From assembly GCA_028698185.1 (NCBI GenBank), contig JAQVDW010000004.1, positions 30,001 to 62,000 of the forward strand: a DNA stretch of 32,000 nucleotides, given 5' to 3'. The notes below the pieces were generated by a model. That model did no database searches, was not told where the DNA came from, and was given only the letters and a program-made list of their open reading frames with translations. The translations under genes were made by a program, and so were the position numbers. Source of the DNA: Erysipelotrichaceae bacterium (lineage in GTDB: Bacteria > Bacillota_I > Bacilli_A > Erysipelotrichales > Coprobacillaceae). Shown here one piece after another: positions 211-11,097 of this stretch (the first letter of the stretch is position 1; the number at the start of each line of letters is the position of its first letter).

Positions 211-1458
211 ATGAAAGTACTAGTAGTCGGAAGCGGTGGCCGTGAACATGCCATCTGTTACAAACTGAACCAATCAGCTGATGTTGAAAAAATATATGCG
301 ATCCCGGGAAATCCGGGAATCGCCCAGCTTGCCACTTGCGTGGCTGGAAGCGTCGAAGATATCGATGCGATCGTTTCCTTTGTCAAGGAGAACGCGATCG
401 ACCTGACTGTCGTGGGACCGGAAGTGCCTTTGTGCCTGGGTCTTGTCGATGCGATCGAAGATGCCGGTTATCTGGCATTCGGTCCTAAAAAAGCGGCAGC
501 AGCCCTTGAAGGATCAAAAGCCTTCTCGAAAGATTTCATGGTGCGCCATGGCATCAAGACAGCCAAATATGTGGAAGTCGACACAATCGAGGAAGCCAAG
601 GCAGCTTTGGCTGGCTTCTGTTATCCGGTGGTGATCAAAGCCGACGGTTTGGCAGCTGGCAAAGGCGTTATCATCTGCGAAGATGAAAAAATGGCAAACG
701 AAGCCCTTGAGGACCTTATGGTAACCAAGACATTGTCGGACGCCGGAGACAAGGTGGTAATCGAAGAGTTCCTGAAAGGATTCGAATGTTCATTGCTTTG
801 CTTTGTCGACAACGACACTATCCTGCCGATGGTTTCGGTCAAAGACCACAAACAGATCGGTGAGGGCAATACCGGTCTTAATACCGGAGGGATGGGAACT
901 GTCAGCCCGAATCCGTTCCTGCCTGCTGCCATCGAAGCCCGCTTCGAACAGGAGATTCTCGACAAATTCATGGCGGGAATCAAGGCCGACAATCTTGACT
1001 ACCGCGGAATCGTCTTTATCGGCCTGATGATTGATGGAGAAGAGATCAACGTATTGGAATTCAATGTCCGTTTCGGAGATCCGGAAACCCAATCGATTTT
1101 GTTACGTCTTGAATCTGATCTGGCCCAAGTGATGAAAGCCTGTGCGACCAACACTCTTGCCACACAGAAACTCGTTTGGAGCGACAAGACAGCGGTGACC
1201 CTGGTTCTTTCAGCACCGGGATATCCAGGAAACTATCCAAAAGGATCGAAGATTTCCAACCTTGACCAATGCGAATGCGTTGTTTTCCATGCCGGAACCA
1301 AGGAAGTTGACGGGGATATTGTGACCAATGGAGGCCGGGTGTTGAATATCTGCGCTTTAGGTGATGACCTCGAAGATGCCCGGGCTAAAGTATACAAAGA
1401 TGCTCAGGTGATTCATTTTGATGGAATGTACTATCGTAAGGATATTGGCTTAATTTAG
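211..1458 (+). CDS. purD: phosphoribosylamine--glycine ligase (GAR synthetase)
   Basis: ATG at 211 lies 5 nt after AGGAGG (201-206). The N-terminus is MKVLVVGSGGREHAI and the body is ATP-grasp. The ORF-track start at 169 is a GTG inside purH and is not used. Confidence 0.95.
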   Translation: MKVLVVGSGGREHAICYKLNQSADVEKIYAIPGNPGIAQLATCVAGSVEDIDAIVSFVKENAIDLTVVGPEVPLCLGLVDAIEDAGYLAFGPKKAAAALEGSKAFSKDFMVRHGIKTAKYVEVDTIEEAKAALAGFCYPVVIKADGLAAGKGVIICEDEKMANEALEDLMVTKTLSDAGDKVVIEEFLKGFECSLLCFVDNDTILPMVSVKDHKQIGEGNTGLNTGGMGTVSPNPFLPAAIEARFEQEILDKFMAGIKADNLDYRGIVFIGLMIDGEEINVLEFNVRFGDPETQSILLRLESDLAQVMKACATNTLATQKLVWSDKTAVTLVLSAPGYPGNYPKGSKISNLDQCECVVFHAGTKEVDGDIVTNGGRVLNICALGDDLEDARAKVYKDAQVIHFDGMYYRKDIGLI

Positions 1459-1467
1459 GAGGGTAAT

Positions 1468-4400
1468 ATGAGCGTCAATCGAATTTATGTTGAGAAAAAA
1501 CCGGGTTTTCGATCTCAGGCCAACAGCTTGAAAGAAGACCTGAATGAACAGTTAAAATTGAATATTAAAGATCTTAGAATCGTCAATTGTTATGACGTTA
1601 CCGGAGTGGATGAAGCCGTTCTTGAAGAAGGGTTGAAAACAATCCTGTCGGAACCGATGGTTGATGACACTTACCAGGAAACATTCCCGATCAAGGCCAA
1701 TGAGCTTGTTTTCGGGGTTGAACCGCTGCCAGGTCAATATGACCAACGTGCCGATTCATGCAAGCAGTGTTTTCAGATTTTGACCGGGGAAGACAAGGTC
1801 AATGTCAAAACAGCTATTTTCTACTGTGCGGAATTGGAAACTGCCAACGACAACGCATTGGAAAGCATGAAAAAATACATCATCAATCCGGTTGATTCAC
1901 GGGAATGCACGACTGAAAAACCGGCTTCTTTGGAAATGGAAGAAGTAGTGGTTGAGGATGTTCCAGTTTTCACTGGCTTCAATGAATTGGATGACGCCGG
2001 ATTACAAGCCTTCCTTGAAGATTATTCTTTGGCAATGTCGTTGGATGACCTTAAAGTCACCCAGACATACTTCAAAACCGAAGAAAACCGCGATCCCACT
2101 GAAACAGAAATCCGCGTGTTGGACACCTACTGGTCTGACCACTGCCGTCATACAACTTTCGCGACAGTGATTGAAAATGTCGAGTTCGCAGATGGGCCGA
2201 TGAAAGCTGTCTACCAGAAAGATTACCAGGATTACATCGCCAGCCGCCATCTGGTGTATGGAATCGATACGAAACGTCCGATCACGATGATGGATTTGGC
2301 GACAATTTCAATGAAGGAATTGCGCAAAGCCGGATATCTTGACGATCTTGAAGTTTCTGAAGAAATCAATGCCTGCTCGGTTGAAGTCGACATCAATGTC
2401 GAAGGTCAGACTGAACGCTGGTTGCTCATGTTCAAGAATGAGACCCACAACCATCCAACTGAAATCGAACCGTTCGGTGGAGCGGCGACTTGTCTGGGGG
2501 GAGCGATCCGCGATCCGCTTTCAGGACGTGCCTATGTCTACCAATCAATGCGGATCACCGGAGCTAGCGATCCTCGCGTGAGCCTGGAAGACACGATTCC
2601 TGGGAAACTGATGCAACGCAAGATCTGTCAGGAAGCTGCCCATGGTTTCTCTTCTTACGGTAACCAGATCGGTCTGGCAACCGGATATGTCCATGAACTT
2701 TACCATCCTGGTTATCAGGCAAAACGGATGGAGCTGGGTGCCGTTGTGGCAGCCGCGCCAAAAGAACAGGTAAAACGTCTGATTCCTCAAAAAGACCAGA
2801 TTGTCCTGCTTTTAGGCGGACGTACCGGTCGTGATGGAATCGGCGGGGCAACCGGTTCATCTAAATCCCATGATGTGAAATCGATCGAAACAGCTGGAGC
2901 TGAAGTCCAAAAAGGGAATCCGGTCGAGGAAAGAAAGATCCAACGACTTTTCAGAAACATGGAATTCTCTAAACGCATCGTGCGTTGCAACGATTTCGGT
3001 GCCGGTGGGGTCTGCGTGGCTGTTGGCGAACTCGCTGATGGTCTTGACATCAACCTTGATGCCGTTTTGAAGAAATATGAAGGCTTGAACGGTACGGAAA
3101 TCGCCATTTCCGAATCGCAAGAGCGGATGGCTATCGTCATCAACAAGGAAGATGAGGCTTTCTGTCGCCAGGCGTGTGCCGATGAGAACCTTGAAGTTGT
3201 CCAAGTGGCGACAATCACCGACAAGAACCGTCTGACCATGGTTTACCGCGGCCAGACAATCGTCGATATCTCTAGGGAATTCCTTGACGGTTCGGGAGCG
3301 AGCCGCTACCAGGATGTAACCCTGACTTCTCCGGATTTTTCAACTTTGCCTTTTAGCGAAGGGGAAACCGAAGATTTCGAAAAATCGGTAGAGGAAGTCC
3401 TTACCCGTCTTTCGACCGCTTCCCAAAAAGGTCTGATCGAACGTTTCGACTCGACCATCGGGAACAACACCGTGCTTTCACCTTTCGGGGGCCGCAAATA
3501 CCACAGCGAAACCGAAGGGATGGCAGCCTTGATTCCGGTATTGAACAAGGAAACCACAAGCGCATCATTGATGACCTATGGTTACAATCCTTTCATCGCT
3601 TCTTGGTCACCTTACCATGGTGCGATGTATGCCGTAGTGGAATCGGTGGCGAAAATCGTGGCAATGGGTGGCGACTATCATAAAATCCGCTTCTCATTCC
3701 AGGAATACTTCGAAAAACTTCTTGACGACAAAGTCAAATGGGGTAAACCATTTGGCGCCCTGCTTGGTGCTTACCGGGCCCAAAAGGAACTTAACCTTGC
3801 GGCAATCGGAGGGAAAGACAGTATGTCAGGTACCTTCGAGGACATTTCGGTGCCGCCGACATTCGTATCGTTTGCGGTTGCGCTTGAAGAAGTTGACAAC
3901 ATCATCACTCCGGAAATCGACGATTATGGAAACCAGCTTGCGGAAATCATCGTTCCTCGTGACGAAAACCATATCTTCGACTTCGAAGTGCTAAAAGACA
4001 CATATGACAAGCTTACTGCCCTGATCCGCGAAGGGAAAATCATGGCGGCCTACACTGTCAAAGACGGCGGGGTCCTTGAAGCGGTGGCAAAAATGGCATT
4101 TGGTAACGGGATCGGGGTAGCATTCAACCCGGACTACGAACTTGCCACATACCTTAACAAGGATTATGGAAACATCGTGGTCGAAATCGAATCCGAAAGC
4201 GATCTAAAAGAAATTCAAAACTACCGGATCGTGGCCGCTACCATCAACTCGCCAGTCCTTTCATACAAAGGAGCGAAGGTTGATCTTGACGAGGCTTATG
4301 CATTGAACAAATCGGTTCTTGAAAAAGTTTATCCGACCCGTAAACCGGCTCCGACCAACGACATCAAGATCGCCAATTGCAAGACCCGTTCTACCTTGAG

Positions 4401-5232: not shown

Positions 5233-6528
5233 ATGTTAGATAGATATTCACGTGAAGTGATGCGCAATATTTGGAGTGAACAAAGCAAGTTTGATGCCTG
5301 GTTGAAGGTTGAAATCCTGGCGTGTGAAGCTTGGTCTTCTTTAGGGGAAATCCCTGAAGAAGATGTCAAGGCTTTATGGGCCAACGCTTCTTTCGATATT
5401 GACCGCATTTATGAGATTGAACAGGAAACCCGTCATGATGTCGTGGCTTTCACCCGTGCCGTATCGGAAACTTGCGGACCGGAAAAGAAATGGGTCCACT
5501 ATGGTCTGACTTCGACTGACGTTGTCGACACTGCCTATGGTTACCTTTACAAACAGGCAAACGTGATCCTGCGCGAAGACCTGAAGACATTCATGGAAAC
5601 GCTGCGCACCCAAGCTCTTAAATACAAGGATACCGTGTGTATGGGCCGGACCCATGGAGTTCATGCCGAAATCACAACTTTCGGTTTGAAATTCGCTCTA
5701 TGGTACGAAGAAATGAAACGGAATATGGATCGTTTCGAAGCTGCCTGTGCGGCTGTTGAAGCGGGGAAAATTTCCGGAGCTGTCGGTACTTTCGCCAACA
5801 CGCCTCCTCAAGTCCAAGACTATGTCTGCGACAAACTGGGAATCAACTCATCAGCGATTTCGACTCAGACTTTGCAACGTGACCGTCATGCCCAATACTT
5901 CTCGACATTGGCTCTGATCGGTTCGTCACTTGAAAAAATGGCTACGGAAATCCGTCACTTGCAAAGAACCGAAGTCCGTGAAGTTGAGGAATATTTCCGA
6001 AAAGGACAAAAAGGTTCTTCAGCGATGCCTCACAAACGCAATCCGATCTCTTCGGAAAACATCTGCGGATGTGCCCGGGTGTTGCGTGGTTACATGCTTA
6101 CATCATATGATAACATCCCTTTATGGCATGAACGCGACATTTCCCACTCTTCAGCGGAACGTCTGATCGCCCCTGATGCGACAGCCTTGCTTGATTACAT
6201 GCTTGTCCGTTTCAACGGAATCCTCGCCAACCTGACGGTTTTCGAAGACAACATGCTTGAAAACATCAACAAGACATATGGTGTTATCTTCTCGCAACGT
6301 TTCATGTTGAAACTGATCGAAAAAGGATGGACCCGTGAGCAGGCTTATGACACGGTTCAGCCAAACGCGATCAAATCATGGGAAAACAAGATTTCATTCA
6401 AGTCATTGATGGAAGACACCCAAAAAGTTCGTGAAACCTTGACCCAGGAAGAAATCGATGATTGCTTCAATCCTGCATACCAGGTCAAAAACGTCGACGT
6501 CATCTTCAAAAGAGTCGGTTTGTTATAA
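5233..6528 (+). CDS. purB: adenylosuccinate lyase
   Basis: 431 aa with the fumarate-lyase family signature [11 protein letters not shown]. An AGGAG RBS is present and the gene follows purL. Confidence 0.95.
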
Positions 6529-6533
6529 TAATG

Positions 6534-6564
6534 AACTCTGTCTGTTTATCAGGCGGAGTTTTTT
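6534..6564 (+). repeat. direct repeat, left copy (DR-L)
   Basis: aactctgtctgtttatcaggcggagtttttt matches 9415-9445 at 25 of 31 positions, including 9 of 13 loop bases. Confidence 0.8.
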
Positions 6565-6566
6565 CT
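6534..6566 (+). terminator. intrinsic terminator of purB (also the left copy of the islet-flanking direct repeat)
   Basis: Stem aactctg (6534-6540) pairs with cggagtt (6554-6560), including one G-U pair. The loop is 13 nt and a T-run follows. Confidence 0.7.
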
Positions 6567-6600
6567 TTCTCTCCATATTTTTGAAAGTTACTTCCTGTGA

Positions 6601-6660
6601 ACTTGAAATAAGGAATTTGATTTCGTTTCCATATTTCAAGTTGAGGGATAAAAACGAAAT
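6601..6660 (+). other. two interleaved perfect stems (pseudoknot-like or mutually exclusive hairpins)
   Basis: acttgaaata (6601-6610) pairs with tatttcaagt (6632-6641). atttcgttt (6620-6628) pairs with aaacgaaat (6652-6660). The 5' arm of the second stem lies in the loop of the first. Confidence 0.5.
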
Positions 6661-6856
6661 AATCTTAGTTCATTTGGACTTTCTAACCATATAACAGATT
6701 TGGTATTCTAACTGGGCATTCAATACTAAACGCTTTTGTTTTAATTATTCGCCTTTTTTAAATCATCTTGAGTGATTGAGGTATTATCATATACTTTTAT
6801 TTTTGGTTTCTAAGGTCCAGTGTAGGAATAAAATTGCGGATTCATCTTGGTCCACT

Positions 6857-7114
6857 TCACCTAGTCCTGAACTTTCTTGCAAAATGCAGTTGTGATAATG
6901 TCAACAAATGTTGACCTCCAACTGTAATCTCATTCTTACTCGCAATTGATCGCAAAATCAACTCAGAAAGAGACCATGACAGCATTTTTTTATGAAGCTG
7001 ATGCCTAAAATTTTGATCAGTGTCAGAAGCTAGGATTGGCAGGTCTGGTGAGAATAATTTACGTAATTGTACTCTCAACTGGTCAGGATTCCAGGTTCGA
7101 AAAATTGCGGCTAA
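6857..7114 (-). pseudogene. possible gene remnant (about 85 open codons, no recognisable family)
   Basis: The frame is open from the TGA at 7115-7117 down to the stop at 6857-6859. The only start is a TTG with no RBS. Short open stretches in other frames adjoin it across an A8 tract (7117-7124). Confidence 0.25.
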
Positions 7115-7481
7115 TCAAAAAAAACAGCAAGGGCATCATGGACAACAACATCAAAAGGAATTATATTTTTGGAATTTACTATCTATTGAGTACTGATAGT
7201 ACAAATACCTATAACGACTTGATAGAATGCATCAACTTACGGAATTAAAAGGTTGATAAAAAGATAAAGCGTCATTGATTATAGTGGATATATATCATAA
7301 GCGGCTACGGCCAAAATAATATACTATTATAAATTGGCGCGAAGTCCATATTAATGATATCTAGCGTTTTGGATTTATCTGAACCTTGTTTTTAAGGTGT
7401 CTTAAGCATGTCGTCATTCAAATTTTTATTTGAAATTATTTTTTAAATGGAACAAAAGTATCAATAATGATAAATTACTCA

Positions 7482-7509
7482 TTGACTTTCAAAAAGATTA
7501 CTTTATAAT
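7482..7509 (+). promoter_or_regulatory. sigma-A type promoter of the islet operon
   Basis: TTGACT (7482-7487), a 16-nt spacer, then TATAAT (7504-7509). Confidence 0.6.
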
Positions 7510-7548
7510 ATGAAGTGGATAGTCACTTCATATTATAAAGTGACTATC
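7504..7548 (+). promoter_or_regulatory. two overlapping perfect palindromes across the -10 box and transcript start (candidate operator and/or 5' stem-loop)
   Basis: tataatatgaagtg (7504-7517) pairs with cacttcatattata (7524-7537). gatagtcactt (7518-7528) pairs with aagtgactatc (7538-7548). The two pairings share bases. Confidence 0.55.
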
Positions 7549-7590
7549 AGGGTTGCTACTAGTAGTGAAATATTTTGTGGAGGAGATATT

Positions 7591-8268
7591 ATGAATGAAG
7601 ATATTCAAAGTGCCATGAATCAAATAAAATTGATCAATAATTCTATTGAAAAAGCAAAGAACAAGGGCAATATTATAGGGAAAATGTTTATATATTTTGG
7701 AATAATAAATTTGGTTAATTATATATTATCTATAATATCAAGTCTTTTTATTTCAAGTTTCAGCGAATTTATTTTAATTGGCGTAATCATTAATGCGATC
7801 ATGTTAGCTACACTGTATTTAGAGGTCCGCAAAATTTTGAAGACATCAAGATATTCTACAAATATATATTTTTTAGGCTTTCTTAGATTATTTGTCTTTA
7901 TTACATTTTTACTACCGTTGATACTGCTTGCGGCCAGGTTTTTCTTATTTTATTTTACAGATATTGATCCATCGTTGTTCATCGCACAATCTACAAAGAT
8001 AAGAGTATTATCTAACTTGGTATTGTTCTTTTATGCATTGATTAATTTTACAAATCTTTCGAGTCTTAAAAGAAACATTTCTTTAATTGCATTAGCAATA
8101 TTTATGATTTTCGTTTTATATGTGATGGATATTGGTTTGAATTTTAGCTTGAATAATTACGTTGTGTCATATTATTTGTGGTCTATTGTGCTAAATCTAA
8201 TGTTTTCAATTGGTTATGTTATCATAGGAATACGTATAAGACAAAAAGAACTTCAAAATGGAAATTGA
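7591..8268 (+). CDS. polytopic membrane protein, function unknown (about 6 hydrophobic segments after a polar N-terminal helix)
   Basis: ATG at 7591 lies 5 nt after GGAGGAG (7579-7585). The 225-aa product is rich in I/L/F stretches. The ORF-track start at 7510 falls inside the promoter and is rejected. Confidence 0.75.
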   Translation: MNEDIQSAMNQIKLINNSIEKAKNKGNIIGKMFIYFGIINLVNYILSIISSLFISSFSEFILIGVIINAIMLATLYLEVRKILKTSRYSTNIYFLGFLRLFVFITFLLPLILLAARFFLFYFTDIDPSLFIAQSTKIRVLSNLVLFFYALINFTNLSSLKRNISLIALAIFMIFVLYVMDIGLNFSLNNYVVSYYLWSIVLNLMFSIGYVIIGIRIRQKELQNGN

Positions 8269-8554
8269 AGATATACCTCAAGCGCTTACCCTTCCATTAA
8301 GACTAATAATTATTAGTATTTTAATTGGCGCGGCTAAAAATTTTAATGATTTGAAAATTTTATCCAACAGTTCAGACGGCAACTTAAGTGTACAGTTAAA
8401 GAAGTTGGAAACCTGGGGATATGTTTCATCAAGCAAAATAAAACAACAAAATAGAACAGTCACCTATTACAATTTGACAAAATATGGGCAAGAGCAATTT
8501 GAAAATTACGTCAAATTACTTTCACGGATAATAGGTAATGTTGATGATTTTTAA
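8258..8554 (+). CDS. winged-helix transcriptional regulator (HTH_34 / ArsR-PadR-like)
   Basis: 98 aa with LRLIIISIL..FNDLK...SDGNLSVQLKKLETWGYVSS...RTVTYYNLTKYGQEQFENYV, a typical wHTH pattern. It overlaps the upstream membrane gene by 11 nt. Confidence 0.8.
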   Translation: MEIEDIPQALTLPLRLIIISILIGAAKNFNDLKILSNSSDGNLSVQLKKLETWGYVSSSKIKQQNRTVTYYNLTKYGQEQFENYVKLLSRIIGNVDDF

Positions 8555-8688
8555 ATTAATTTACAACAAAACTTTTAAGCAACAAATAGCAATCCAAAAC
8601 AATAAATACTGTACTTTGCAGGAATTATAAGGTTTTGATTTAATTTCTATTTTGTCAAATACTAGGGCATCAGAACACAAAACTTCAT

Positions 8689-9312
8689 ATGAAAGAAGAG
8701 GGGATTATTCTGAAGAAATTATTTAGTATTTTACTCATTGTAACAATAATGTTGAGTTTTAATATGAATGTTTATGCACAGGACAAGATATTGCGAGTTG
8801 ACAATTATGAAGATGCGTTTAATTTAATTATTGAAGAATTCGACGTAGATATGACATATTTACCGGTTGACGAATCGAGAATTTCGCTTAATGATTATAT
8901 CAAAATTACCAGAGAGGTTGCTGAAGAACAAAGAGAATTGTTGGACTACATCGAATTTAGACAATCAAATAATTTTGAATTATTTTCACCGCTGACAATG
9001 AGTATAGATTCAGTAACCGTTACAAAAACAAGAACGAAAGATGCTTGGGGAGATATGGGTACATACTTTGGTATTAAAGCCACATATAATGTAACAGGGA
9101 CGCAAGTAAGTTACTTGAGAAATTCTAGTATATCTTATAAATATGCTACAGTAACTTCAAATGTTTCATTGGGTAATATCAGTAACCCAACGTATTCATA
9201 TCTTGACGGTGGTCGTACTGGGGCTGTTAAATACACTGCTGAAATGTACTATGACTTTTTTTGGAGTGCTGGAAACGTCACCATATATACAGAATTTTAT
9301 TATAGTGAATAA
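8689..9312 (+). CDS. secreted protein, function unknown (Sec signal peptide; helical N-domain and beta-rich Tyr/Thr/Ser-rich C-domain)
   Basis: MKEEGIILKKLFSILLIVTIMLSFNMNVYA/QD has n-, h- and c-regions with a VYA-Q cleavage site. The RBS before the ATG at 8689 is weak, so the start is uncertain. The DR-R hairpin terminates it. Confidence 0.7.
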   Translation: MKEEGIILKKLFSILLIVTIMLSFNMNVYAQDKILRVDNYEDAFNLIIEEFDVDMTYLPVDESRISLNDYIKITREVAEEQRELLDYIEFRQSNNFELFSPLTMSIDSVTVTKTRTKDAWGDMGTYFGIKATYNVTGTQVSYLRNSSISYKYATVTSNVSLGNISNPTYSYLDGGRTGAVKYTAEMYYDFFWSAGNVTIYTEFYYSE

Positions 9313-9317
9313 ATGTA

Positions 9318-9386
9318 GGTGGCTCTGAAGAGTGAAAATGGGTGGCTCTATATCGGTGAACAAGGTGGCTCTCAACTAGCGGAATA
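9318..9386 (+). repeat. three tandem 23-bp units, each starting with GGTGGCTCT
   Basis: GGTGGCTCT occurs at 9318, 9341 and 9364, exactly 23 bp apart. Units 1 and 2 also share GTGAA near their 3' ends. Confidence 0.85.
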
Positions 9387-9414
9387 TTCAATTGTTGTTG
9401 GAATTGTAAATATC

Positions 9415-9445
9415 TACTCCGCATGTTTATCATACGGAGTTTTTT
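9415..9445 (+). repeat. direct repeat, right copy (DR-R)
   Basis: tactccgcatgtttatcatacggagtttttt matches 6534-6564 at 25 of 31 positions. Confidence 0.8.
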
Positions 9446-9447
9446 TT
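9416..9447 (+). terminator. intrinsic terminator of the islet's last gene (part of DR-R)
   Basis: actccg (9416-9421) pairs with cggagt (9435-9440). The loop is 13 nt and T7 follows. Confidence 0.7.
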
Positions 9448-9454
9448 GTATAAT
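9447..9454 (+). promoter_or_regulatory. extended -10 element (TGTATAAT) for the SDR gene
   Basis: TG plus TATAAT (9449-9454) sits 22 nt upstream of the ATG at 9476, with AGGAGG at 9461-9466. The -35 is weak. Confidence 0.45.
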
Positions 9455-9475
9455 GTACCAAGGAGGTAAATTAAT

Positions 9476-10183
9476 ATGGATTTTACCAATAAAGTAGTAG
9501 TCATCACCGGGGGCGCCCGAGGCATCGGCCGAGCCATGGCTGAGGCATTCGAACAGGCCGGAGCCCAAGTCGCCATCATCGATATCATCGAAAATGATTA
9601 TTTTGTCGGGGATATCGCCAACCCGGAAATTCTCGAATCGTTCCATGGAAAAGTGATAAAAGATTTTGGCCATATCGATTTTCTGATCAACAACGCGATG
9701 CCCTTGTTCAAGGGCATCGACAACTGCTCCTATGAACAGTTCAATTACGCCCTGCAGGTGGGGGTTAGCGCGCCGTTTTATCTGACCAAGCTTTTTCTTG
9801 ACAATTTCACAACCACCGGGGCGATCGTGAACATCTCCTCATCCCGCGATCGGATGAGCCAGCCCCAAAGTGAAAGCTACACCAGTGCCAAAGGGGCGAT
9901 AAGTGCCTTGACCAGGTCGTTGGCGATCAGTCTTGGGGGTAGAGTCCGGGTCAATTCCGTTTCGCCGGGCTGGATTGACACCAAAAACCAGGACCATCAA
10001 GGGCCCGATGCCTCCCAACATCCTGTTAGACGAGTAGGCAAGCCGGAGGATATCGTCAATGCGGTCATGTTCCTGTGCGATGAAAAGGCCGGGTTCATCA
10101 CCGGAGAAGACATCTGTGTCGATGGGGGGATGACCAAACTGATGATCTACCATGATGATTTTGGTTGGACTTACAATGAATAG
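9476..10183 (+). CDS. SDR family NAD(P)-dependent oxidoreductase
   Basis: TGGARGIG Rossmann motif, NNAM, a catalytic Ser and YTSAK (YxxxK). Confidence 0.9.
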   Translation: MDFTNKVVVITGGARGIGRAMAEAFEQAGAQVAIIDIIENDYFVGDIANPEILESFHGKVIKDFGHIDFLINNAMPLFKGIDNCSYEQFNYALQVGVSAPFYLTKLFLDNFTTTGAIVNISSSRDRMSQPQSESYTSAKGAISALTRSLAISLGGRVRVNSVSPGWIDTKNQDHQGPDASQHPVRRVGKPEDIVNAVMFLCDEKAGFITGEDICVDGGMTKLMIYHDDFGWTYNE

Positions 10184-10212
10184 ACACAATTTCGATGAAG
10201 TGAGGTGGATGG

Positions 10213-11097
10213 ATGTTTCTATTGCAGAAAATTGAGGAACTGATGGTGAATTACAGCGATGCCCGGCATACCGTCGGAGAATTCGTCCTGAACGAGAAGG
10301 CGGCGATTGGCGACTATACGATCGCCCAGATCGCCCAGAAAACCTACACTTCCAAGGCGACAGTGGTAAGGTTTGCCAAGACATTGGGATATGAGGGTTG
10401 GAAAGAATTCAAAAAGGATTACCTGGCTGAACTCAACTACCGGGCAAGTCACAGCGATGATGTCGACGTCAATATTCCCTTTAAAAAGGGCGACAGCATG
10501 GATGTTCTGGTCAACAACCTGATGAATCTCCTGATAGAGAGCGTCAGGGATACCGTTGATCTTTTGGACTATGCGATGGTGGAAAAGGCGGTTGAATATC
10601 TTAAAAATGCCCGACATGTGATCATCTTCGGCATCAGTCCCAACGATTATCTTGGTCAACTTTTCAAAAGAAAGCTGCTCACGATTGGAAAGTACGCTGA
10701 TGTGGTCCAGTTTTCGGAAATCGGCCTGATGTCGAAATTCATGACCAAGCAAGACTGTGCGATTGTGATATCATATTCGGGCAACACCCGGTTCTCCGAA
10801 CCGATAAGCAGCCTCAAAACGCTGATTGGCAAAAAAATTCCGATAATCGGAATCACCAGTGGCGGCGACAATTTTATCAGAAACAATGTAACCTGCGTCC
10901 TGACCATTTCTTCAAGAGAGAGACTGTACTCGAAGATATCGAATTTTGCGACGGAGAACTCGATCAACTTTATCCTGAATTTGATATTCTCGCGCTATTT
11001 CATGGACGATTATGAGCGGAACCTGATCTACAAGATTGAAAACGCCAAGGATCTTGAAGTCCAAAGAGCTGCCACATTGAAAGAACTTAAAGACTAG
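10213..11097 (+). CDS. MurR/RpiR family transcriptional regulator (HTH_6 + SIS domain)
   Basis: N-terminal ...IAQIAQKTYTSKATVVRFAKTLGYEGWKEFK and a SIS-like VIIFGISPN...VISYSGNT. The RBS is GAGGTGG. Confidence 0.9.
   Translation: MFLLQKIEELMVNYSDARHTVGEFVLNEKAAIGDYTIAQIAQKTYTSKATVVRFAKTLGYEGWKEFKKDYLAELNYRASHSDDVDVNIPFKKGDSMDVLVNNLMNLLIESVRDTVDLLDYAMVEKAVEYLKNARHVIIFGISPNDYLGQLFKRKLLTIGKYADVVQFSEIGLMSKFMTKQDCAIVISYSGNTRFSEPISSLKTLIGKKIPIIGITSGGDNFIRNNVTCVLTISSRERLYSKISNFATENSINFILNLIFSRYFMDDYERNLIYKIENAKDLEVQRAATLKELKD

Follow-up and report, generated by a model that had tools for sequence, protein, structure and literature searches.

We analyzed a 32,000-nt stretch of DNA from an Erysipelotrichaceae bacterium (assembly GCA_028698185.1, contig JAQVDW010000004.1, positions 30,001 to 62,000; hereafter called the window) and investigated three adjoining genes at positions 7482–9312 of the window. 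These genes, designated here as mem, reg, and sec, encode a polytopic membrane protein, an overlapping winged-helix regulator, and a protein exported by the Sec pathway, respectively. The three genes travel together as a previously undescribed mobile module in anaerobic Clostridia. The prediction of a self-repressed operon in which the translation of mem and reg is coupled is well supported, and it is likewise well supported that the gene for the acidic Sec-exported protein is kept beside this operon.

Gene content of the window locus

The first-pass annotation, which was made from the letters of the sequence, had placed one near-consensus promoter before a 225-aa membrane protein with about six hydrophobic segments, a 98-aa winged-helix regulator overlapping it by 11 nt, and a 207-aa protein with a Sec signal peptide, and had seen no terminator before a direct repeat to the right of the genes (DR-R). 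All of these elements were recovered in our analysis. The sigma-70-type promoter of mem-reg, and probably also of sec in the window, is located on the + strand at 7482..7509 (−35, TTGACT, 7482–7487; 16-nt spacer; −10, TATAAT, 7504–7509). It scores 11/12 and is the top promoter-like site in the region 6300–9800. The mem gene (7591..8268, + strand) is preceded by the Shine-Dalgarno sequence GGAGGAG (7579–7585) and encodes 225 aa with six transmembrane (TM) helices and a cytoplasmic N-terminal amphipathic helix. The reg gene (8258..8554, + strand) encodes a 98-aa HTH_34 winged-helix protein, probably an autorepressor, and overlaps the mem stop by 11 nt. The sec gene (8689..9312, + strand) encodes 207 aa, of which approximately 30 aa (8689–8778) form a signal peptide of the Sec/signal peptidase I (SPase-I) type. 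The first intrinsic terminator 3′ of the promoter is the hairpin at 9416–9440 within DR-R. The list of open reading frames (ORFs) had given mem as 252 aa with a start at 7510; this ATG sits within the operator described below, directly 3′ of the −10 hexamer, and a transcript from the 7482–7509 promoter would therefore begin 3′ of it.

Conservation of the three genes as a unit

Conservation of the trio as a unit in other genomes had been posed beforehand as a test of the first-pass annotation. In three different orders, the three genes adjoin one another in no fewer than 10 distinct clostridial loci, and sec adjoins mem in 11 of the 13 distinct sec loci (HMM searches over all fetched loci). The carriers span Lachnospiraceae (L024 and L026), Sedimentibacter (L004, from a metagenome-assembled genome, MAG), Thermoclostridium (L011–14), Clostridium (L021), and Acetobacterium (L025), in addition to the window host. 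Adjoining sec and mem genes were also found on a human-gut contig (L019) and in further loci (L008, L015, L022, and L028), and the sources of the trio include human-gut, mouse-gut, and anaerobic-digester Clostridia. The order is sec-mem-reg in most loci, among them L021; sec is divergent from mem-reg in L004, and the order is mem-reg-sec in the window. In the usual order a terminator hairpin lies between sec and the mem promoter, which indicates that sec is transcribed separately, from a promoter of its own. The overlap between mem and reg is 11–14 nt in every locus with reg. Moreover, the pairwise identities of the three proteins co-vary (r 0.84–0.94, nine loci), with mem evolving fastest.

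Several loci carry only part of the module. The Acetobacterium locus has sec and mem and lacks reg, mem-reg occurs without sec in L016–18, and sec occurs without mem in L006 and L007. In L006, sec is followed by a different, unrelated overlapping membrane protein. In L024, a stop codon splits sec and mem-reg is intact. These orphan or decayed variants (L016–18, L024, and L006) resemble the decay commonly seen in toxin and immunity genes. A separate observation concerns L028, in which the terminator of sec and the promoter of mem are separated by an insert of approximately 350 nt (3540–3860), G+C-rich unlike its AT-rich surroundings.

Operators and autoregulation of mem-reg

The mem promoter of the window carries an 18-nt perfect inverted repeat (7500–7517 / 7524–7541) that overlaps the −10 hexamer and consists of two 17-bp palindromes, ACTTTAT-N3-ATAAAGT. 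Operator O1 (7500..7516, + strand; ACTTTATAATATGAAGT) has one mismatch and includes the −10 hexamer, and operator O2 (7525..7541, + strand; ACTTCATATTATAAAGT) is the exact reverse complement of O1 and spans the expected transcription start region. A search for ACTTTATNNNATAAAGT at ≤2 mismatches gave 2 matches in 32 kb versus 0.08 expected. Alignment of 11 mem promoters gave TTGACA, a spacer of approximately 17 nt, and the −10 hexamer, with the same palindrome on or just 3′ of the −10; this layout of operator and promoter is kept upstream of mem in 10 other loci with reg. Among the 18 loci searched, the exact operator pattern was found only upstream of mem, and a looser sequence upstream of sec in L022 escapes the pattern. 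The Acetobacterium locus without reg has no operator either, and the half-site differs (GGTTTAT-N3-ATAAACC) in L016, the mem of which (P0018) is the most distant homologue. Palindromes on the −10 and the transcription start (+1) have the geometry of repressor sites. Because the conserved palindrome lies on the mem promoter and is missing or altered where reg is missing or mem is distant, reg is predicted to repress its own operon. The comparative evidence for this autorepression is strong, and the first-pass proposal of an autoregulator thus finds strong support in a phylogenetically conserved operator on the mem promoter. We infer that reg itself binds this DNA, presumably as a dimer on the palindromic operator at its own promoter. 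The overlap of mem and reg is predicted to couple the translation of the two genes.

The reg protein matches PF13601 (HTH_34) with E = 1.4e-17 and 64 bits against a cut-off of 27, with residues 14–92 covering positions 1–80 of the 80-position profile. The reg homologues in all loci with reg likewise match HTH_34, and the window protein is 44–49% identical to its homologues. Similarity to the PadR, HxlR, and ArsR families was sub-threshold only. An assignment to PadR (PF03551) was rejected on a partial match of 25.4 bits against a cut-off of 27, and Penicillinase_R (PF03965) was rejected on its absence from the Pfam matches of reg at E up to 1. The closest PDB sequences are 1ub9 and 3l7w (E of approximately 2e-3), which are uncharacterised proteins; BC4206, a regulator considered below, was not among the PDB sequence matches. 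A full-text literature search found no paper naming HTH_34 or PF13601.

The reg-sec spacer of the window (8555..8688, + strand) has neither a terminator-like nor a promoter-like site, and sec of the window is probably produced by read-through from the repressible mem promoter. The single three-gene transcript proposed in the first pass thus appears sound for the window and does not extend to most other loci, in which sec is a separate unit before mem-reg.

In L022, a second TTGACA-17-TATAAT promoter was observed upstream of sec (approximately 5530–5610), together with the operator-like sequence ACTTTATAAGGTAAAG and then a strong terminator hairpin. This upstream promoter may be what is left of a mem promoter, or it may belong to a small regulated RNA.

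The membrane protein mem

The AlphaFold model of mem (mean predicted local distance difference test, pLDDT, 68) has an N-terminal amphipathic helix followed by six long helices, and hydropathy together with the positive-inside rule gives an N-in/C-in topology with six TM helices, in agreement with the first-pass description. Conservation among 11 homologues peaks in the cytoplasmic N-terminal helix (I-K-E-T-I-E..K), the cytoplasmic TM2–TM3 loop (S-N-K-Y-Y-L), and TM3, and is lowest in TM2 and the outer loops. The alignment of these homologues has no conserved His or Cys, and a role as a protease or enzyme is therefore unlikely.

The first pass could not place mem or sec in any family by motif, and Pfam, NCBIfam, PHROGs, PADLOC, PDB sequences, and Foldseek likewise gave no confident match for either protein. 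The cassette thereby withstands the other test posed beforehand, by which placement in unrelated, well-characterised families would have spoken against the first-pass annotation. In regards to mem, no match was obtained in Pfam, NCBIfam, PHROGs, or PADLOC with the window protein and its homologues (11 sequences), and the mem profile gave nothing below E = 0.1 against PDB sequences. The best Foldseek match in the PDB had E = 1.3 and a TM-score of 0.38, which is a weak test of the fold at a model pLDDT of 68. AgrB, the S-component of energy-coupling factor (ECF) transporters, and other small six-TM families were rejected in the absence of a Pfam match and of a structural match to this moderate model, and a role as a transporter or ECF S-component found no support. 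CPBP/Abi-type and other known immunity proteins of bacteriocins, for which a family match or EExxxR, FxxxH, and HxxxN motifs were sought, were rejected as well: Pfam, NCBIfam, and PADLOC gave no match, and the alignment shows conservation of neither a His nor a Glu-Glu motif. BlaR1/MecR1 was rejected because mem and 10 homologues have no Peptidase_M56 match and the outer loops have only 4–6 residues. A metagenome scan with mem gave one locus only.

The exported protein sec

The signal sequence of the window protein is MKEEGIILKK-LFSILLIVTIMLSF-NMNVYA, followed after the predicted cleavage site by QD, and a signal peptide is present in all homologues, as the first-pass assignment of a secreted protein would lead one to expect. 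The mature window protein has approximately 20.5 kDa and a pI of approximately 4.4; across the family the mature proteins have 18–20.5 kDa and are Cys-poor. The conserved motifs are EQRELLDYI, KTRTK, ITATY, D-x-G-R-T, and YTEFYYSE, the last of which forms the C-terminal end. The near-invariant positions are only Tyr, Asp, and the Gly-Arg-Thr motif. Since sec has no conserved nucleophile, it is probably non-enzymatic and more likely to bind a target or to act on membranes. In a low-confidence model built from five sequences (pLDDT 45), the N-terminal part is helical and the C-terminal part contains approximately eight beta strands.

When 1.84 billion cluster representatives were searched exhaustively with a profile, only 119 relatives of sec were found. 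The full-length relatives have approximately 200 aa, and many are shorter fragments. The window protein and 68 homologues gave nothing real in Pfam, NCBIfam, PHROGs, or PADLOC, and profiles of 5 and 68 sequences gave nothing below E = 0.1 against PDB sequences. The Foldseek matches of the sec model (GFP-like barrels, E of at least 0.13) were discarded as meaningless at a pLDDT of 45. NF053514 (BLB8/JUQZ-1, a reported Brevibacillus bacteriocin) matches weakly in 3 of the 68 family members and not in the window protein; it was rejected as a family for sec because the match covers only residues 1–40, the signal peptide, at 29 bits against a cut-off of 40. Homology to AgrB was rejected as well, since the lone AgrB match is the chimeric ORF P0054. 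In P0054, approximately 60 residues of an AgrB N-terminus are fused to a sec protein without its signal peptide; this ORF either ties sec physically to agr loci a second, independent time or is an artefact of assembly or deletion.

Two further observations concern sec homologues and their neighbors. L006 (6694–7182, − strand, 162 aa) and L012 (238–666, + strand, 142 aa) encode beta-rich proteins with signal peptides that adjoin sec homologues, and the sec profile detects neither of them. In one sample, L032 (1–105) carries a 93%-identical copy of sec that is joined, at the position corresponding to 8770 of the window, to unrelated DNA richer in G+C, so that the signal-peptide region and all upstream sequence are replaced. 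L032 represents either a rearranged strain or a chimeric assembly.

Promoters of sec and an agr-like locus

In L015, L008, and L019, the box AAT(T/A)ATTACA-N11-AATTATTACA is found 5′ of sec, followed by 26 nt and then the −10 hexamer. The sec promoters of these loci thereby carry two 10-nt direct repeats, AATTATTACA, 11 nt apart and with a 21-bp period. Direct repeats with a period of approximately 21 bp are characteristic of LytTR regulators (PMC6193735). In L015, the trio is immediately preceded by a complete agr-like locus (401–3679); it comprises a LytTR response regulator, a histidine kinase, a 143-aa receiver-like protein without a Pfam match, an AgrD-like peptide of 49 aa (...SACCYIFHQP...), and AgrB, with the AgrD/AgrB operon downstream of the response regulator and the histidine kinase. 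The same repeats, with identical spacing to the −10, are also present 5′ of this adjacent agr-like operon, and L015 thus has the box before both the operon and sec (2292–2322 / 4161–4191). From the arrangement of these sites, sec of the L015/L008/L019 clade looks like a quorum-sensing-controlled exoprotein.

Mobility of the module

The trio is a horizontally mobile module of Clostridia. L021 is a 7429-nt contig of a Clostridium sp. MAG with a 115-nt terminal overlap and is thus circular, with approximately 7.3 kb; besides Rep_3 and a resolvase, no cargo other than the trio is evident on it. L022 carries MobA/MobL and Rep_3. L019 carries LPD25, a PAPS reductase, and NlpC/P60, which are typical of a conjugative element, and the trio of L004 lies among recombinase, PemK, and sigma-factor genes. 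In every locus the G+C content of the trio is below that of its flanks. The first-pass view of the window locus as a foreign islet of low G+C is therefore borne out by this base composition and by carriage on plasmids and a conjugative element. Searches of plasmid and phage collections with sec (tblastn) and of plasmids with the complete islet (blastn) gave no match, and neither did IMG/VR when scanned.

Proposed function and alternatives

Our preferred reading, which we hold tentatively and with somewhat less than even confidence, is that sec is an exported effector, probably an antagonistic one, and that mem is a membrane protection or sensor protein partnering the autorepressor reg. In such a system the HTH_34 repressor, presumably as a dimer, would sit on the palindromes over the −10 and the start of its own promoter. 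Exported sec would act as an extracellular effector, most likely as a large Sec-dependent bacteriocin-like toxin, and mem would protect the producer and/or report the action of the effector at the membrane. It would hold or release the repressor via its conserved cytoplasmic N-terminal helix and TM2–TM3 loop, and release would derepress mem-reg, and in the window also sec, when needed. With the genes rearranged to mem-reg-sec in the window, the exported protein would most likely be made from the same repressible promoter.

Antagonism and immunity are favored by a small plasmid that has no cargo but the trio, by the LytTR-type control of sec, by the decayed variants, by a layout like that of dysgalacticin and DysI, and by the precedent of BC4206/BC4207. 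The first-pass annotation had left the choice between an antagonism/immunity cassette and a surface-sensing module. The plasmid cargo, the quorum-sensing-type promoters, and the orphan or decayed variants speak for antagonism, and the cytoplasmic conservation of mem and its short outer loops speak for a role as a sensor or in docking the regulator.

A number of observations weigh against our preferred reading. Neither by sequence nor by fold did the searches connect the proteins with a bacteriocin, toxin, or immunity family, and the model of sec is of low confidence. Mature sec is acidic (family median pI 4.9), unlike most membrane-active bacteriocins. The outer loops of mem, with 4–6 poorly conserved residues, are unlike what is expected of a specific toxin-binding immunity protein, and mem diverges much faster than sec (L015 versus L019: sec 92%, mem 54%). 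In most loci sec and mem are transcribed separately, and no sec promoter was found to carry the operator. Only one clade has the LytTR-type box; the window lacks the two direct repeats of approximately 9 bp, separated by approximately 12 bp, that mark such promoters. Furthermore, the start of sec is poor in the window, where ATG 8689 has no Shine-Dalgarno sequence. The codon in line with the ATG of all homologues is CTG 8710, which comes after a Shine-Dalgarno-like GAAGAGGGG (8695–8703). The start codon of sec would accordingly seem to be mutated in the window organism, in which the translation of sec may be weak.

The fast divergence of mem, its tiny and variable outer loops, the separate transcription of sec and mem, and the acidity of sec are reasons to favor instead a membrane-gated one-component switch, in which mem is a transmembrane inhibitor or sensor of reg, after the manner of HdrRM and BrsRM (see below) though with an HTH_34 repressor, and sec is an output or an extracellular cue and not a toxin. 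We consider this reading unlikely on balance. It would account for the conservation of mem on the cytoplasmic N-terminal helix and TM2–TM3 loop with outer loops that are short and variable, for the fixed stoichiometry implied by the constant translational coupling of mem and reg, for the mem-reg pair standing alone in L016–18, and for the autoregulation of the mem-reg operon; moreover, two-gene systems of a regulator and a transmembrane inhibitor are an established kind (PMC6193735). However, the operator is found at the mem promoter only, so no wider regulon is visible in the fetched loci, and the short outer loops give mem little surface to bind an extracellular protein. The switch also leaves unexplained why a freely secreted sec, with neither a lipoprotein signal nor an anchor, is kept adjacent in three gene orders, and why a small plasmid carries the trio and no other cargo. 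An inducible resistance module is improbable: here mem would shield the envelope against a foreign membrane-active compound or bacteriocin, with reg as a ligand- or stress-responsive repressor, or the logic would be bla-like, with sec secreted to protect or to neutralize. A small winged-helix repressor and a membrane protein in a self-repressed operon occur in BC4206/BC4207 (PMC2774856), the divergence of sec from mem-reg in L004 mirrors blaZ and blaR1-blaI, and resistance cargo typically travels in this way, on plasmids and conjugative elements. Yet sec has no conserved catalytic residues and no match to a hydrolase or binding-protein family; mem has no M56 protease motif, conserved His, or extracellular sensor domain; reg falls below the PadR cut-off and is not Penicillinase_R; and quorum-sensing-type control of sec better suits an offensive product. 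Still less probable is that the genes are unrelated neighbors, with sec an exoprotein of another kind (e.g., surface, matrix, or nutrient) hitch-hiking beside mem-reg on mobile DNA. The separate transcription of sec in most loci and the occurrence of sec without mem in L006 and L007 and of mem-reg without sec in L016 are consistent with it. It is at odds with the adjacency of sec and mem in so many of the distinct sec loci across many taxa, an adjacency that outlasts three rearrangements, with the co-divergence of the three proteins, and with the trio as the only cargo of the 7.3-kb plasmid.

A more specific form of our preferred reading would make the trio a new toxin-immunity-regulator family of gut and digester Clostridia, with a Sec-exported bacteriocin of approximately 20 kDa and new fold, a likewise new six-TM immunity protein, and a membrane-captured HTH_34 autorepressor. 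In this form, which we regard as doubtful, agr-type quorum sensing would switch sec on in some lineages, and immunity would be induced on demand. Alternatively, the cell may sense its own exported protein through mem, which would be a protein-based signal of self or kin.

Comparison with known systems

The logic of the module resembles both the autorepressor/membrane partner kind and the bacteriocin/immunity kind, and its mem and sec families, which are unannotated, occur in a combination that we have not found described. Among the named families tested, membership was found only for reg, in HTH_34. In the blaR1-blaI-blaZ and mecR1-mecI systems, a membrane gene is followed by an overlapping winged-helix repressor, the operators are palindromic, and the genes are borne on plasmids or transposons. 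The order of mem and the overlapping reg, the operators on the promoter, and the divergent linked effector gene of L004 are alike. Unlike these systems, mem has no Peptidase_M56, HExxH, conserved His, or penicillin-binding sensor domain, reg is not Penicillinase_R, and sec is not a beta-lactamase.

Dysgalacticin is a plasmid-borne protein of 220 aa with a Sec leader and an adjacent gene for the membrane immunity protein DysI (PMC8308785). The module resembles dysgalacticin/DysI and streptococcin A-M57, which are large, non-lytic, Sec-dependent (class III) bacteriocins, in a precursor of approximately 200–220 aa, a Sec leader of approximately 28–30 aa, and a mature protein of approximately 20 kDa. 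The size of mature sec across the family agrees with the approximately 17–22 kDa of the heat-labile mature proteins of this class. Carriage on small plasmids (L021 and L022 here) and an adjoining membrane-protein gene are also shared with the dysgalacticin type, and by analogy mem may have an immunity role. In contrast, sec had no tblastn match in plasmid and phage collections, in which the presence of the dysgalacticin plasmid is unconfirmed, dysA/dysI have no described counterpart of the dedicated HTH_34 autorepressor that is coupled to mem, and the hosts of the module are anaerobic Clostridia. The PadR regulator BC4206 and the membrane protein BC4207 of Bacillus cereus are induced by, and protect against, enterocin AS-48 (PMC2774856). 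They share with the module a winged-helix repressor of approximately 100 aa that is co-transcribed with a small polytopic membrane protein whose fold is unknown; however, the membrane gene comes first in the module, reg belongs to HTH_34 and not PadR, mem has six TM helices and not four, and a secreted protein is linked to the pair.

HdrM and BrsM of Streptococcus mutans are transmembrane inhibitors of co-transcribed LytTR-family regulators (PMC6193735). Both operons, HdrRM and BrsRM, are, like mem-reg, autoregulated two-gene operons of a DNA-binding and a transmembrane protein, and they are tied to bacteriocin genes (PMC6193735). They differ in that a LytTR activator acts there on direct repeats upstream of the −35 with positive feedback, whereas the module has an HTH_34 protein and palindromes on the −10 and +1, and in that the two genes come in the opposite order; a contact of mem with reg is a prediction here. 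Pheromone-controlled class II bacteriocin loci share the repeats with a 21-bp period that are found at the sec promoter in L015, L008, and L019 (PMC6193735). Unlike in these loci, sec is a Sec substrate of approximately 200 aa rather than a small peptide with a double-glycine leader, no ABC exporter is dedicated to it, and its transcript does not include the immunity-like gene; the window, moreover, lacks the box.

The mem and sec families are unannotated in the curated libraries searched, yet the module is conserved and mobile. If sec is antagonistic, the module would represent a new class of large Sec-dependent bacteriocins and a new logic of immunity and regulation in strain competition within anaerobic communities, as well as a new addiction or competition cargo for plasmids and conjugative elements. 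Whatever its function, mem-reg offers a clean case for membrane control of an uncharacterised regulator family, with a precise operator prediction.

Boundaries and flanks of the window islet

In the window, the trio is carried on an islet with 28–33% G+C across 6501–9000 versus approximately 45–55% in the flanks, located between a purB-like gene (5233–6528) and a short-chain dehydrogenase (SDR) gene (9476–10183). A repeat search showed that the edges of the islet are imperfect 42-nt direct repeats with 76% identity. The left copy, DR-L (6523..6564, + strand), is immediately 3′ of the purB-like stop and holds a terminator-like hairpin with a T-run at 6533–6561 (terminator scan). In the right copy, DR-R (9404..9445, + strand), the terminator hairpin noted above is followed by U8, and the U-tract ends at 9447. 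Both repeats are terminator hairpins with the common loop TGTTTATCA. It appears that the islet either went in at the purB terminator or duplicated it. No integrase or tRNA gene was found in the window, and Rfam and tRNA scans of the islet were negative. An empty purB-SDR site was not found; the right end of the islet is present on every SDR-carrying contig. Apart from one MAG (GCA_028690185.1) and a small number of sequencing runs, no sequence identical to the window was found.

The left arm of the islet (6565..7481), approximately 0.9 kb with 31–33% G+C, contains only short ORF fragments and no intact gene. It gave no family match, no Rfam match, and no similarity to other trio loci, and it may be a decayed remnant of the element that brought the trio. 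Between the sec stop and the terminator, three exact copies of GGTGGCTCT are present with a 23-nt period (9318..9372, + strand). The stretch 9323–9389 is the sole part of 7553–10437 that is polymorphic between samples, with allele A in the window, L001, and L030 and an unrelated allele B in L003, L031, L033, and L034; mem, reg, and the SDR gene are identical across the samples. The GGTGGCTCT array could be a protein-binding array or a recombination scar.

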